A DNA stretch of 63,981 nucleotides, the filler included, from Thelocarpon superellum (taxonomy: Eukaryota), in the NCBI GenBank assembly GCA_026025795.1. It is 4 parts of 4 records of this genome, joined end to end, with 100 filler letters (N's around TTAATTAATTAA, not from the genome) between each part and the next. Parts side by side here need not be neighbours in the genome. Positions count along the whole stretch, not along the records: positions 17,782 to 35,347 come from JAPEUG010000372.1; 3 more parts are not named here. One strand, written 5' to 3'. Numbering within the stretch: the stretch's first letter is position 1; each line of letters starts with the position of its first letter. Below are positions 17,682-63,165 of this stretch, one piece after another. A program made the position numbers and the translations under genes. The notes under the pieces are model-generated. The model did no database searches. It was not told where the DNA came from and saw nothing but the letters and a program-made list of their open reading frames with translations.

Positions 17682-17781
17682 NNNNNNNNNNNNNNNNNNN
17701 NNNNNNNNNNNNNNNNNNNNNNNNNTTAATTAATTAANNNNNNNNNNNNNNNNNNNNNNNNNNNNNNNNNNNNNNNNNNNN
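17682..17781. other. Artificial contig spacer
   Basis: N44-TTAATTAATTAA-N44; the core gives stops in all six frames. Confidence 0.98.
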
Positions 17782-33061: not shown

Positions 33062-34551
33062 CGACTGGCCTACACTTGGGGGCTCAGGGGCCGGGGGCCG
33101 GAGGCCTGGGGCCAGGGGCCATTCCATGGCCACGAGTGCTGCAGCGTGGATCCAAGACTAGTGATTGTGCAGCAAAGGTACTGTTCACGGGGTCGCTCCC
33201 AGATTGTTCTCACCAGATTGTGTCGGTAAACGGGGGAGATTCTTATGATATGAGCAACGGCTGAGACGGCCGTGCGAAGAATGGATCATGATTTGTGCAC
33301 TAACACTGGATTTGATCGTGTGAAACGTGTCATCTTGCAGTCTCCAACGTCTCCCGGCCAGCCTTGGCTGCCGTACCTGACCCTCAGCTCCACCACTCCC
33401 CAAGGAGGCTGCCACAAGCCGTGGCCCCTCCGCATCTCACTCCCGCATGATGACATTCCTCACCACCTAGCAGATGGACACAGCACGACACACCGTCAAC
33501 ATTGCTACCGTGGACTAGGAGCCGCTCATGTCCGCTCTGGCGCTCGGACTCAGCACTTACCGAGCCCTGTCAAATGCTTTCCGGGTTGCGACGAGGTCCG
33601 CTTGCCGCCTCTCCATGCCACCACACACTTCACCACGTGCACATATTATCGCAGATCGATCCAAGGCGCAGCTGGGTTTCGTGACGTCGGGTTTGGCGTG
33701 CTCGGGGGGACGTCCGGTAGAGAATTCGCGCAAGATCGAGGTCACGGATGGATCTTAACGGCCATCTCACCATTCTAGATGAATGCCGCAACAAGGATAC
33801 GCATTCTTGGTGAGTGTTCTTGCTTGCTTGGCGAGGTTGAGCGTTTCGGTCACTGCGAAAGCCCTGAGAAACATTGCTAAATCGGTCATCTACTGACAGT
33901 AGGTTTCCAACTTGATGGCGACTTCCTCCTCACTTCATACCGCCTTCCTTCTACCATGATTGAATTGATCTGTTCTTGAACCAGCTAGAACTACTCACGC
34001 CTGCTTGTGGGCATACACCTCCTTCTTCACAGTCAGCTTCGGCAGCATTCGCCCCGGCGGATCCCTCTCTAGTCCAGGACATCGCTCAACCGATGGCGCC
34101 AAAGAGTCCGGACGCGGGGTTTCGATGGATCAATACCCACCTCTACCTCAACCTGAGCCGTACTGTATGATGGCCGTATCGTCGCTTGGCTCGGTGATGA
34201 TTTGCTTTGCTGCAATTGTAGTGATCTAGAGATTTTCCGTTGCGCTCGCGTCTGCAACAACCATGCCAATAGAGGCAGAAAAGCATGGCTCACCCGGATT
34301 ACCTATCAGCGCTTGTTCTACCACGAGGGATTGCGCTAGTACATAAAGTAGCACTCAGTCCAGTATCATTGCCAATGAAAGAGCACGTGTCTAAGCTGAA
34401 ATTTGCCGGCCAGATGTGAGAAGAGATCTCTTCGAAGTGGAGAATTCGTAGTAACTGCTCAAGCGCGCATTTTTCGTGGCGCGGATTAGGGTCGGTTTAT
34501 AATTTGTTCTAACGAAAATTTGCGAATGGCAAAGTGGCCGAGTGGTTATGG

Positions 34552-34604
34552 GTACGTCCAGTAATTCGTCGAAGATAACCCAACCCAGTTAACAAGATTT
34601 CTAG
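34552..34604 (+). other. Spliceosomal-type intron (53 nt) in the tRNA D-arm
   Basis: 5' GTACGT, branch-like GTTAAC at 34588-34593, 3' TTTCTAG. Precise removal rejoins TATGG|CGGCAG. Confidence 0.82.
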
Positions 34605-34617
34605 CGGCAGTCTCAAG

Positions 34618-34669
34618 TTCGCATTATCAGAGTGGGATAATGAATCTTGCATCATTTAATGATGTTGCA
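34618..34669 (+). other. Canonical tRNA intron at position 37/38 (52 nt)
   Basis: Starts one nucleotide 3' of the CAA anticodon. Contains a CATTATC/GATAATG hairpin and a CTTG complementary to CAAG. Confidence 0.85.
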
Positions 34670-34723
34670 ATCTGCTGGGGCAACCCGCACGAGTTCGAAT
34701 CTCGTCTTTGTCAGATGAATATA

Positions 34724-34728
34724 TTTTT
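34724..34728 (+). terminator. RNA polymerase III oligo-T terminator
   Basis: TTTTT about 10 nt after the tRNA 3' end, with a second T run at 34740-34744. Confidence 0.7.
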
Positions 34729-35347
34729 GGCTATGATATATTTTGTGGCTCCGATGGAAACGAGACGTATTGGATAGGTATATCGTTGATATGATTAAAA
34801 ATGGTAGAACAAAAGGCGTCACTTTCTTCGCCGTCGCTGGGAAATTGCTTGGCGGATAAACATCGTACGGGGATGTTATTCCTACAAGTACTCGCTTTAC
34901 TGCTTCCGCTGAACGCGACATTAGTCATTCGGCCTGAATTACCGCTACAATTGTACCATTCGAAGTACAGAGGGTGGGCAGAGAGGTGGGTTTGACAGGT
35001 AGTATGCCCTGGGGCAGACTGAAATGAGAACTCAATCGCCGGCACCTGGATGTTGAGACCACAAGGAGAGCTGGGACGACATGTCTGGGAGGGCACTGAT
35101 CGAGCGAATCCGCACATGTCAGTTGTAAAGGGGAGTGGATTGGGATGGTGAAACCACGCATCCCAGTCCCCGGACCCATGTACGGCGAGTACCAGTCTCT
35201 AGAGTAGACTTGATAGAGGATGATCTCTGCTCTAGTTCTAATTGTGGTCCAAATGCACTGCAAGGCTTAGGGTCCGGAGGGAACTAGTTACCCCCTACTT
35301 AGCCCCTACCCGGATAGATCCGAATCGAGACCGTTTGTTGAAAGGAG

Positions 35348-35447
35348 NNNNNNNNNNNNNNNNNNNNNNNNNNNNNNNNNNNNNNNNNNNNTTAATTAAT
35401 TAANNNNNNNNNNNNNNNNNNNNNNNNNNNNNNNNNNNNNNNNNNNN
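35348..35447. other. Artificial contig spacer
   Basis: N44-TTAATTAATTAA-N44. Confidence 0.98.
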
Positions 35448-47206: not shown

Positions 47207-48379
47207 CTAGGGCACGTAGTTGCTCGGCTTGGCGGCCAAAGTAGCCATTTTTTCACGTTCCTGCTTTTCTAGCTCTCGCTTTTGCCGATCGGCTTTGGTG
47301 ATGCGGGGCTTCCGCACGACGTTGCCACCTCGCGTGCTGTTGCCTGACGCGGAGGCGCTGGCCCCACGGCCTGCCCCTCCTCCGCGGGTTGAGCCACCTC
47401 GACCACGACCTCGTCCACGCTTGGCCGGTCCACCGGCGCTGAGGCACATGTAAGCATATGAGAGGGAGTCCGGAGCAACAAAGACGTACCGCTCGATGGT
47501 CGGTTTCTCGCCGGCGGGCACAAGGGGGCCGCTGTAGACGAAGAAGCCGTCCTTGCTGGCGGCTGCTTGCTCCTCCCAGAGCATCTCCGCGTCATCAACA
47601 AAGGGATCGTCTTTGTCATACTCCTCGGTCTTGGTCTGCCGCTTCTTCTTCACTTTGCCAGTCCCGGTGGGCGCGGTGACGCCGCTCATCTCGACATTGC
47701 TCTCGGGATCGGAGAGGTCGACGGACATATCGTCGCCCGACGCCCCCGCCGATTCCGGTCCTAGCGCTGCCCCTGCCGCCGCCACCCGGGCTAGGCGGTC
47801 GCGCTGCGCGGCGATGCGGGGATAGAGGGCGTTGAAGCCATAACGTTCTTCGGCCATGCGGGCAAAGTTGATGGTCTTGTTCGTCTCGCCGTTCATGGCG
47901 ACTTCCAAGATAATGGTAGGCGCGCGATTCTCGGTCTGGTCACCTTGGGGCGCGGACGTGGGGCCCCCAAACAGCGCACTTGACAGCAGTCCATTTCCCT
48001 GTGGGAGGGGCGGGGGGGCGGCCTTCTGCCGAGCGGGTTTGGGCGAGGGTGTGGCGGACGCTGCCCCATTATTGGCGACGGCGGAACTCCGCTTCGTCGA
48101 GCTGTTGGCAGCGCCGGGGGAGTGGGTGGTGGACATGCGTGCGTCGTCGTCGAAGGGGGCCGTCATTCCCGACTTCCCTTGATCCCCGCTGGGGCATGGC
48201 GCCGCGGGTGGGGCGATCTCTACCGTGGAGGGCGACGAAGGTGAAGACACCACGCCATCACGCGACTGTAGACGCGGACCTTGCGAGAACGGATGGGGAT
48301 GCGTCGGCACCGTGCCTGAGGGTGGATCGATCAGACTGGCGATGGAGGGTGACGCACTGGCCCGGTTGACGGTCGCCAT
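47207..48379 (-). CDS. HPC2: HIR complex subunit Hpc2 (HUN/HRD domain)
   Basis: INFARMAEERYG and EEYDKDDPFVDDAEMLWEEQAAASKDGFFVYSGPL. Probable 51-nt intron at 47439-47489. Confidence 0.85.
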   Translation of the reverse strand: MATVNRASASPSIASLIDPPSGTVPTHPHPFSQGPRLQSRDGVVSSPSSPSTVEIAPPAAPCPSGDQGKSGMTAPFDDDARMSTTHSPGAANSSTKRSSAVANNGAASATPSPKPARQKAAPPPLPQGNGLLSSALFGGPTSAPQGDQTENRAPTIILEVAMNGETNKTINFARMAEERYGFNALYPRIAAQRDRLARVAAAGAALGPESAGASGDDMSVDLSDPESNVEMSGVTAPTGTGKVKKKRQTKTEEYDKDDPFVDDAEMLWEEQAAASKDGFFVYSGPLVPAGEKPTIERYVFVAPDSLSYAYMCLSAGGPAKRGRGRGRGGSTRGGGAGRGASASASGNSTRGGNVVRKPRITKADRQKRELEKQEREKMATLAAKPSNYVP

Positions 48380-52902: not shown

Positions 52903-53002
52903 NNNNNNNNNNNNNNNNNNNNNNNNNNNNNNNNNNNNNNNNNNNNTTAATTAATTAANNNNNNNNNNNNNNNNNNNNNNNNNNNNNNNNNNNNNNNNNN
53001 NN
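52903..53002. other. Artificial contig spacer
   Basis: N44-TTAATTAATTAA-N44. Confidence 0.98.
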
Positions 53003-59504: not shown

Positions 59505-61426
59505 TCACGCTGCGCCTCCTTCGCCCGTCTCGGCTTTCCCTGCGTCAGGGTTCAGGTAATCCGCGTTCTCCGCCGCCTCGTATTCTGCAATCAGGTCCGT
59601 CACGACGGCTTTGGCTTCGTCGAATTCGCCTAGGCCATCGGAGAAGGGCGCTTCTTTCTTGTATTGTTCGAGGAAGGCGTTGCGTTTTCGGAGGCGGTCG
59701 TACTGCAGCACGATTCGTTTGAAGAGCTACGAGGGCTAGATGAGCCTTGGCTTTCGGGGCAGGCCAGGACGTATCGATCTGACGTACCGTGGCTATGCTG
59801 GTGTGGTTTGCCAGCATCAGTCCGCTGACCCGATGTGACATGGGCATGTATGGCGATTTCTTCGTTAGCGCTACCTGGATGCTGGCAGGGCCCCAGGGTA
59901 TGAAAGTCGCCAGGCGTCGTTCCCGGATACGGAGCAGTGATTTGTGCACCTGCGCATCTTCGTCAGTCACTGTCTTCTTCCGGCCCTTTGCAACCTACAT
60001 CATTCGGATCCGCCTCGCCTTGGATGATGTTGAGGATGGAAACGTAACAGCTCTTTTTGCTCGGGTTGGTCGACACCATCCGGTTCTTCGGCTGCAGTAG
60101 TCGGCGCATCACGTCCAAGACCGTCGTCTTCCGCACCGTCTTGGCTTGTTCAAGATTGTCGCCGGTGAAGGGCGTGTATGAGGTCATGAGGAAGTGGCAG
60201 CGCGGGGTAGGGATGAGGGACGCCACGATGCCCACCAGGTCGTTGTGCATGTACCCTGGATAACGAAGCGTCGTGGTGCTCGCCGACATGACCGTCGATA
60301 CCTGGAGGCGTCAGCGGGAGCGACCTCCGGGACGTGTACCTGCATACCAACTGATTCGTCTGCTGGAACGATGGCTCTTGCACATGTAATCGATCCGCCG
60401 CAATTCTCGACAGTGCCCCATTGTCCAGAACGACCTGCGGGGTCAGCCGAGATCATGCTGCATTGTGCGTTCTACGGTCCAAGGAACATACCACCGAATC
60501 CGCGTTTTGCGTCAGCCGTCTCATGGCCAACAGGCTGTTGTAGGGGTGGACGACGACGTCGCCTGCACTCTGTGTATCCGGAAATACCGAATACGTCTGG
60601 ATCAGCTTCTTGGGAAAGCGATCGTTGAGTCGTTCCAGCAAGAAGGAGCCCAGGCCGGATCCAGTCCCACCAGCAATGGAATGCAGTAACATGAAGCCCT
60701 GTGCTGGGTTAAGCTCGGAATGGACGCCTGGACGCGTGGACGCAAGGCCGTGTCGCATACCTCCAAGGAATCGCTCCCGTCTGCCTCTCGATCGATCATT
60801 TCCATCACCTCCTCATGTACGCTCTCGCCCGTCGCGTATCCCGCCGCCCAATTGTTGCCTGCCCCGATCCCATCTTTCCCCACGTAGAAATTCTCGGGGT
60901 TGTAAATGTTCTTGTAGGCGCCGGTCTGGATGCCATTGATGACCTAGACGGAGCATCAGCCGGAGCATGTTCTCATGTTCTCGTCAAGACCATCTCCCTA
61001 CCCTAGGCTCGAGATCAAGAAGGATGGCGCGCGGGATGTACCGGGTATCATCTGACTGGATATGGTCGTCAGCGAGGATTGTCGCGGGGTGGTTGGCCCG
61101 TTGGGTCGGCGGGCCAGCGCGCGGAACATACCTGGTAGAAGAAGACATCCTTGCGGTCCCCGCCCTCCGTGGCAAAATCTTCTAGATTTCCATCTTGGCT
61201 TATGCCGTGCTCCTGGCAGAGCTGTTGCCAGAATTGACTGCCCACTGCGGGAACTACATCAGCGGGTGCAGCCCACACAAGCGCGTCGAACGCCCAGCGT
61301 GACGCGCCCCCCTCAACGCGCCCTACGTACCGCTGTTTCCGCACTGGCCCGCCTGGATGGTGATGATCTCCCTGCAGTCATGTCAGAGCCGAAAGGCAAC
61401 ATTGGCACCGGCGCCTACCGCGGCAT
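59505..61426 (-). CDS. mipA: Gamma-tubulin
   Basis: [63 protein letters not shown]. Multiple short introns. Confidence 0.97.
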
Positions 61427-61931: not shown

Positions 61932-63165
61932 TCATGCCGACTTGATCGCTGCTCGCGCGATCAAAGGCTCGGAAAAGCGCCGCCAGAACATGGCGCCGAA
62001 GAAGAGGAGCATGAACTGTATGCGCACCAGGTTGAACAGGTCGGACCATGTCAGTCGATCGGGCTTGGCGTGTGGGTCGAAGCTGTCACACGTGTCCAAG
62101 ACCATCTTGGGGTCGTCGCCGATGACGCCGTCCACCTGATGGCGAATGCACCATCGCACCATGCTGGGCTTATTGACCGTCCATACGAAGAGCGAGCGCT
62201 CGGCCGCCTTGACGTCCTGGATGAAGGACTGACCCATGGGCCCCATGAGGACTTGTTGGAGCATGTTGAAGGAGACGTTGGGCAGCTTCAGGAATTGCCG
62301 TGCATAAAGGATGCCGAAGCCGATGTGGGTGATGGGAAAGGTGGGAAGGTACCTTTGGCAGAGATGAACCTGCTTGGTCTAGAGAGCCGTCATCAGGCCG
62401 GTGCTCTCGGTCAGGCGCGGGGAAGGTGGGGTTCACTCACGGCCCAGCAACCGAGTATTATCCGCCCATCCCAGGGCGTGCTTGAGGGAGCCACTTCGTG
62501 GATGGCTTTGGCGATTTGGCGTATGGTGGTTTCATGATCGGTGTCGACCTGACGCAACGTCAGCATCGAGATTCACGTCACGCCCCGAGCGGACTGCGGA
62601 CTGCGGACTGCGGACTGCGGACCTTGATGTCCAGTAGGAGCCAGAGATGGCTAGCTCCTGGGGTGGCGAGAAGCCCGAGCAGGTCGGTCAGTCGCGGCAA
62701 GGGCTCATGAGGAGCTTTGATGGTCCGAAGATGCTTGAGCTCCTCCCAGGTGCAGTCGATGATCTTCGCATCGCGACCGTAGCACCGTTGGAGCGTGGCG
62801 TCCTGCTCAACGGGTCAGCGACGGGCTGGGAGCAGACATGTCCGCGAGCTCCACTGACATGCGACAGCACCACCACGCCATCTTTGGAGAGGTGAATGTC
62901 CGTCTCGATGGCATGAGCGCCAATCGCTACGGCGCCGTTGAAGGCGGCCATGGTATTCTCGGGGTGCTGCGCTTTGTATCCTCGATGCGCAATGGCTTGG
63001 GGCATCCGCCATCCTCTTCGATCACGCCTCGCTCGGACAAAGGTGGCCGCTGCTTGATGGTCAGAGGAACGGCAGATCAGCCGGGCCATTCCGGAGGGGT
63101 AGCTTGGGCATACGACGGGGATATGATGCTGTGGTCGCCAGTAACGGTGACGTCTCGGACTTCAT
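61932..63165 (-). CDS. PGC1: Glycerophosphodiester phosphodiesterase, Pgc1-like
   Basis: IAHRGYKAQHPENTMAAF, IETDIHLSKDGVVVLSH, FVWTVN, VDGVIGDDP and a C-terminal hydrophobic anchor. Short first exon from ATG 63165 (MKSETSPLL). Confidence 0.85.
62589..62622. repeat. 7-bp tandem repeat (GCGGACT) x ~4.8 inside a PGC1 intron
   Basis: Directly visible. Confidence 0.85.

Follow-up and report, generated by a model that had tools for sequence, protein, structure and literature searches.

A candidate spliceosomal intron in the D-arm of a nuclear tRNA-Leu(CAA) gene of Thelocarpon superellum

Canonical eukaryotic tRNA introns lie at position 37/38 and are removed by the TSEN endonuclease together with a tRNA ligase. 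In a stretch of 63,981 nt from the genome of Thelocarpon superellum (assembly GCA_026025795.1; four parts joined end to end, hereafter called the window), a tRNA-Leu(CAA) gene is interrupted in its D-arm by 53 nt that look like a small mRNA intron, which raises the question of what this insert is and how such a transcript could become a tRNA. Based on splice signals, folding of the predicted product and comparison with related loci, we consider it likely that positions 34528-34713 form a nuclear tRNA-Leu(CAA) gene that works and that has two introns, a spliceosomal one of the U2 type (GT-AG) in the D-arm and an ordinary one at position 37/38. The gene itself is probably functional, judged by its sequence features.

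The interrupted gene and its predicted product

The gene lies on the plus strand and was identified by cloverleaf reading and ARAGORN as a class II tRNA-Leu(CAA) gene of 186 nt with three exons and two inserts. Its features, with the putative control elements, are as follows.

34496..34503, plus strand: TATA-like TTTATAAT, 25-32 nt 5' of the gene, a possible upstream RNA polymerase III (Pol III) element whose role is inferred only
34528..34551, plus strand: exon 1, 24 nt, tRNA positions 1-24 in the ARAGORN cloverleaf after removal of both inserts; acceptor 5' strand, U8 and G9, D-stem 5' strand, D-loop and nucleotides 1-3 of the D-stem 3' strand
34535-34546, plus strand: A box, inside exon 1
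34552..34604, plus strand: 53-nt candidate intron of the spliceosome type, placed between D-stem positions 24 and 25
34605..34617, plus strand: exon 2 according to the cloverleaf; C25, G26, anticodon-stem 5' strand and loop to G37
34614-34616, plus strand: anticodon CAA, in exon 2
34618..34669, plus strand: 52-nt tRNA intron of the canonical kind at 37/38, which the tRNA splicing endonuclease would be expected to remove
34670..34713, plus strand: exon 3, from position 38 through the anticodon-stem 3' strand, the long variable arm, the T-arm and the acceptor 3' strand to A73
about 34692-34702, plus strand: B box, in the T-arm part of exon 3
34724..34728, plus strand: run of five T (T5), likely Pol III terminator, 11 nt after the discriminator

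Taking out both inserts yields an 81-nt product that ARAGORN identifies as tRNA-Leu(caa). All four arms are paired; the acceptor stem has 7 bp, the D-stem 4 bp and the T-stem 5 bp, and the variable arm is long. The features of a class II tRNA-Leu gene are thus all present: a complete cloverleaf with its long variable arm, the Leu anticodon, A73, both boxes (A and B) and the T run downstream. No TTTT occurs within 34528-34713. A scan for T-arms with matching acceptor strands returned this gene as the single tRNA gene of the 64-kb window. The preliminary description of the locus had reported exon 1 followed by a 53-nt block reading GTACGT..GTTAAC..TTTCTAG, and the sequence reads exactly so. It had also stated that cutting at GT/AG restores a full 81-nt Leu cloverleaf; this is correct once the second intron is also removed, but excision of the 53 nt alone leaves 133 nt, and the 52-nt canonical intron at 37/38 had gone unmentioned.

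The same description had predicted that standard tRNA finders would fail at this locus, and both programs that we applied behaved accordingly, ARAGORN by miscalling the gene and the Rfam tRNA model by not detecting it. ARAGORN falsely reported tRNA-Stop(tta) in both modes, in default mode out of the 3' part of the locus and in intron mode with an assumed intron of 95 nt. With the 53 nt alone removed, a false tRNA-Cys(gca) was obtained because the program sets the second intron in the wrong register. Searches with the Rfam covariance models (Infernal) detected no tRNA at gathering score anywhere in the window, and none within 34300-34900 even at E<=1. Boundary finding by deletion of every length after the donor, followed by ARAGORN in intron mode, was also tried; since almost any deletion gives a call, this approach was too permissive and was not used for setting the boundaries.

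Splice signals of the D-arm insert

The insert opens with the donor GTACGT (34552-34557) exactly at its 5' boundary and closes with TTTCTAG, so that the acceptor TAG (34602-34604) stands exactly at the 3' boundary. Near its end it contains GTTAAC (34588-34593), in which TTAAC provides a putative branch A at 34592; the spacing from there to the end is 12 nt, where about 11 nt had been given earlier. The longest T run within the 53 nt is three. The insert splits the D-stem 3' strand, and its boundaries are set by the cloverleaf to within 1 nt. The cut can slide by this 1 nt (G|G) with no change in the product, and only one of the two possible cut registers, GT..AG, shows splice signals.

The chance occurrence of such a block was estimated on both strands of the window, using as criteria a donor GTA[CTG]G[TCG], a yTRAy branch 6-30 nt before the end and YAG as the last three bases. 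Among all windows of 53 nt, 1 of 126,944 showed all three signals, and this is the insert itself since the insert satisfies the pattern. When all start/length pairs between 40 and 100 nt were considered, 59 of 7,793,482 passed (7.6e-6, real introns counted in). At this rate, a random insertion would therefore look like an intron about once per 100,000 tries. A repeat check gave no second copy of the insert in the 64-kb window or in any locus retrieved.

For comparison, we mapped the introns of the gamma-tubulin gene of the same window by alignment to a homologue from a metagenome-assembled Thelocarpon genome, which is 98-100% identical exon by exon. The eight introns measure 86, 76, 58, 62, 57, 46, 49 and 61 nt (median 59.5). 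Their donors are GTACGT and GTATGT and GTATGC (two each) and GTAGGG and GTAGGT (one each), a yTRAy branch occurs in 7/8 (mostly CTGAC or CTGAT, once TTAAC), and the acceptors are CAG in six cases and TAG in two. The D-arm insert falls inside this distribution for length (53 against 46-86 nt), donor, branch and acceptor, in line with the earlier claim that its length, donor and branch spacing resemble those of the protein-gene introns in the window. The use of GTACGT donors elsewhere, also claimed, was confirmed for gamma-tubulin (2/8 introns), whereas in HPC2 the GTACGT at 47489 on the minus strand is a plausible candidate. In that HPC2/HUN-domain open reading frame, it would open a putative 51-nt intron (47439-47489, minus strand) with a CTTAC branch.

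A relative, two further interrupted genes and the surroundings

A 235-nt contig of a moss metagenome, originating from another study, covers 34517-34751 with nine substitutions and no gaps (roughly 96% identity). This relative keeps both inserts, and donor, branch and acceptor are present without change. The preliminary description had named an ortholog that retains the insertion but has lost the splice signals as evidence that would speak against a spliceosomal intron; in this relative the signals are intact. The only substitution within the 53-nt insert, at 34574, is interior and outside the signals. Four of the five in-gene changes affect the 37/38 intron (34637, 34645, 34668 and 34669), and the remaining substitutions are situated in the 3' trailer (34714, 34716, 34717 and 34718). 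The exons are thus unchanged at 0/81 positions compared to nine changes at the 154 positions of introns and flanks (one-sided Fisher test, p=0.02). With arms intact and exons without change in the relative, albeit a small sample, the marks of a pseudogene were not found. At 34668-34669, right beside the 3' cut site, the 37/38 intron of the relative ends in AC in place of CA. The T.T bases at 31-39 are identical in the relative. Two further DNA runs (X4 and X5, from other organisms of the source study) yielded nothing usable on the tRNA-Leu gene.

A scan for tRNA genes that fold only upon removal of a GT..AG block had been proposed as a check, and a pattern scan yielded two more Leu genes on metagenome contigs. 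While a 24-nt stretch of exon 3 gave 0 matches in the metagenome contigs, a pattern consisting of a class II A-box region, GG and a donor-like GTRNGT gave at least 120 matches at at least 119 loci. From the 120 matches listed, a B-box filter kept six and a filter for T-arm and matching acceptor strands kept five; two among the 120 listed are real interrupted class II Leu tRNA genes, both on eukaryote-like contigs. The first, L013, on a 29-kb contig, is a tRNA-Leu(AAG) gene with a 71-nt insert (GTATGT..CTCTAAC..CAG) and without an intron at 37/38. The second, L033, on a 760-kb contig, is a tRNA-Leu(CAG) gene with a 74-nt insert (GTACGT..TTCTAAC..CAG) and, in addition, a 21-nt canonical 37/38 intron. 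After splicing in silico, ARAGORN calls both Leu, and long T runs are located downstream of both genes. In unspliced form they are miscalled by ARAGORN as Cys or Thr, and a tRNA was found in neither by Rfam at E<=1.

The three mature Leu sequences share 50-59 identical positions of 81-87 aligned, and the three D-arm inserts have little in common beyond the splice signals. In L013 and L033, insertion site and donor were dictated by the scan pattern; the CTAAC branch and the YAG by which C25 is exactly restored were left free. With the donor given, branch and YAG at the fixed end are expected by chance at about 2e-3 (13/7,109 in non-tRNA matches). The same pattern gave no interrupted tRNA among 120 matches in prokaryote genomes, where two weak chance matches were rejected on inspection, and none among seven matches in viral contigs.

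Several other candidates of the scan were rejected: L012 is a chance match, L052 and L078 contain a B-box-like string only, and L034, L067 and L069 are uninterrupted tRNA-like sequences. The latter three display normal spacing from A to B box, a D-stem 3' strand GGGT and no ARAGORN call, and may be tRNA-derived repeats or pseudogenes.

Next to the tRNA-Leu(AAG) gene of L013, positions 1063-1224 on the plus strand encode the start of P0123, a 692-aa protein of the Dak2/FakA-DegV fusion type. Among its named relatives, diatom and MMETSP proteins come closest with 35-42% identity, compared to about 30% for bacterial YloV/DegV, and they point to a bacterial-type fatty-acid-kinase fusion in protists; an Atlas search with this neighbour gene produced no usable match. 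Because of these relatives and of a G+C content of 31% at the locus, the sequence suggests that L013 derives from a protist, not a fungus. A match to the small nucleolar RNA sR20 in L013 (E=0.4) was below the gathering score and was dismissed as probably due to chance.

The window of the Leu-CAA gene also contains genes for a fungal Zn-cluster transcription factor, an HPC2/HUN-domain protein, a prenylcysteine oxidase and others typical of a filamentous ascomycete. For the prenylcysteine oxidase, the nearest Atlas clusters include Ascomycota, the top-ranked one being Chordata. Gamma-tubulin and a GDPD-domain gene adjoin each other (59514-61373 and 61935-63161, both on the minus strand). In two database gene models of the lichen-associated fungi Chaenotheca and Sarcosagium, tubulin and GDPD are fused, which suggests the same gene order there; the models have probably been merged. 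The window is interrupted by 44-N blocks, which come in three pairs (264 N altogether) at 17682-17781, 35348-35447 and 52903-53002, and the middle pair falls within a VPS4-like gene just downstream of the tRNA.

Alternative explanations, proposed maturation and known systems

Several observations weigh against a functional gene with a spliceosomal D-arm intron. Splicing of the 53-nt insert is a prediction from DNA sequence. The cloverleaf has a single flaw, a T.T mismatch at 31-39 (34611 and 34671) in the last pair of the anticodon stem, and the distance of about 145 nt between A and B box exceeds the usual spacing in tRNA genes. With 42%, the G+C content of the insert differs from that of the local intergenic sequence (49%) and of the window (60%), and the gamma-tubulin introns look G+C-rich by eye. 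The contrast between exons and the other positions comprises nine substitutions on one low-depth contig, and for that reason constraint on the exons is a hint, not proof. As to the further genes, the variable arm of L033 is poorly paired, and the conserved position of the inserts is not independent evidence because the search pattern forced both site and donor. The lack of T4 runs in the three inserts is by itself not significant (joint expectation about 0.24).

The main rival explanation is that an intron-like insertion broke the gene, leaving a dead or redundant copy, and that an intact Leu-CAA gene elsewhere supplies the cell. The T.T mismatch in the spliced product and the failure of the standard finders to score anything at the locus would be in agreement with this. 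However, no decay is seen in the arms, the two boxes or the terminator, and the substitutions in the relative spare the exons (0/81 against 9/154 elsewhere). All three splice signals would occur by chance at the ends set by the cloverleaf at a rate of about 8e-6, and two unrelated genes share the same design. We therefore regard a dead copy as unlikely.

The insert might also be removed without the spliceosome, by the tRNA splicing endonuclease, as happens with ectopic introns of the bulge-helix-bulge (BHB) type, or by another nuclease-ligase route. Non-canonical tRNA introns, including some in the D-arm, are known in archaea and the red alga Cyanidioschyzon merolae according to the available text of PMC3978253 and PMC3728597. 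The 53-nt insert is not at 37/38 but at 24/25, and no BHB with 3-nt bulges and a 4-bp helix was found at the D-arm junctions of the Leu-CAA gene, L013 or L033. In all three genes and in both registers, the central helix reaches only one to two of four pairs, and the minimum-free-energy folds are without a helix joining the two junctions. Moreover, this route leaves the donor, branch and acceptor signals unexplained, rendering it quite improbable.

Recruitment of the spliceosome is commonly coupled to RNA polymerase II (Pol II), and the insert could accordingly be spliced from a Pol II read-through or host RNA from which RNase P and RNase Z then free the tRNA. On the other hand, the A and B boxes are intact, a TATA-like element is situated upstream, the T5 run follows right after the gene, the 186 nt are free of TTTT, and no host gene model was found around the tRNA gene. 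In addition, intron-containing U6 genes indicate that Pol III transcripts can be spliced, as stated in the available text of PMC5855946. We consider the Pol II route slightly less probable still than removal by a nuclease. Finally, an assembly or sequencing artefact, for which no supporting point was found, can practically be dismissed, as an independent assembly of the probable source run is identical across the region and a second data set from another study has the same structure at about 96% identity.

The interpretation of the D-arm insert as an mRNA-type intron, already put forward in the preliminary description, is hence supported by its signals and length, the absence of a BHB, the failure of the finders, the relative and the two further genes. 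In the maturation pathway that we propose for tRNA-Leu(CAA), Pol III would start from the A and B boxes, which are intact, and stop at the T5 run, and the spliceosome would take out the D-arm intron via GUACGU, the branch A in UUAAC and UAG. Only upon removal of this intron would D-stem pairing and the L-shaped body become possible. The endonuclease, measuring from the mature domain, would then cut the 37/38 intron, and the ligase would join the halves, with end processing and addition of CCA as the last steps. Given this order of removal, with the D-arm intron leaving first, tRNA-Leu(CAA) would depend on the spliceosome by analogy to intron-containing U6 small nuclear RNA (snRNA) genes in some fungi.

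Whether the three genes exemplify a wider phenomenon appears evenly balanced. Spliceosomal tRNA introns may be an overlooked and recurrent class in distant eukaryotes, with members in one ascomycete lineage or more and in what is probably a marine protist. In such a class, Pol III products would be processed by the spliceosome first and by the tRNA endonuclease second, and the genes would be dropped by the finders. The shared 24/25 site in the D-stem of three Leu isoacceptors could date back to an ancient intron in the Leu family, or reverse splicing into an abundant RNA may favour this site.

If confirmed, this would be the first tRNA whose maturation requires the spliceosome, and the group of non-coding RNAs with mRNA-type introns (U1, U2, U5, U6 and rRNA) would be extended to the most abundant class of Pol III transcripts. 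The gene would provide a natural substrate for studying how the spliceosome engages a Pol III transcript, would show the order of two splicing systems on one precursor of 186 nt, and would allow a test of reverse splicing into abundant RNAs as a seed of new introns. Some isoacceptors seemingly missing from eukaryotic annotations could then be artefacts of the finders. Since ARAGORN and Rfam fail on all three examples, decoding tables derived from automatic tRNA annotation could be wrong where such genes occur.

A literature search, with subscription journals mostly outside its reach and supplements excluded, found no tRNA gene reported to contain a spliceosomal intron, and none is described in the available text of PMC5855946, PMC11342251, PMC3879985, PMC3978253, PMC6619189 and PMC12621601. 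Spliceosomal introns in structured non-coding RNA genes are known; as far as these searches reach, the candidate described here is the first in a tRNA.

Four known systems can be compared to the Leu-CAA gene. With canonical tRNA introns the gene shares an intron of this very type (34618-34669), but the D-arm insert differs from these in its position at 24/25, in its mRNA-type signals and in that it disrupts the ruler domain of the endonuclease. Ectopic introns of the BHB type, described for archaea, Cyanidioschyzon merolae and nucleomorphs in the available text of PMC3978253 and PMC3728597, likewise occupy non-canonical sites including the D-arm and defeat the standard finders; unlike the insert, they are set by a BHB, which is absent here, and are devoid of GT..branch..AG signals. 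Spliceosomal introns also occur in ascomycete rRNA genes (Bhattacharya et al. 2000, cited in PMC5855946, available text). These are of the spliceosome type as well and reside in genes for RNAs of the translation machinery, and Thelocarpon belongs to a lichen-associated lineage. In contrast, rRNA is a transcript of RNA polymerase I, while the tRNA gene bears Pol III signals.

Fission yeast and other fungi carry mRNA-type introns in their U6 snRNA genes, and Rhodotorula has further ones in the genes for U1, U2 and U5 snRNA (Tani and Ohshima 1989, 1991; Takahashi et al. 1993, 1996, cited in PMC5855946, available text). The available text of this 2018 review lists U1, U2, U5, U6 and rRNA genes as hosts of spliceosomal introns, suggests reverse splicing as their source and names no tRNA. 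The snRNA introns resemble the D-arm insert in that a GT-AG intron with a branch site resides within a short gene for a structured non-coding RNA, U6 being a Pol III product as well, and in that reverse splicing has been proposed as their origin. However, the tRNA host is not a part of the spliceosome, and a gain in a tRNA is therefore not explicable by closeness to the catalytic centre. A further difference is that the Leu-CAA gene adds an endonuclease-type intron, so that a single precursor of 186 nt would be processed by two splicing systems.

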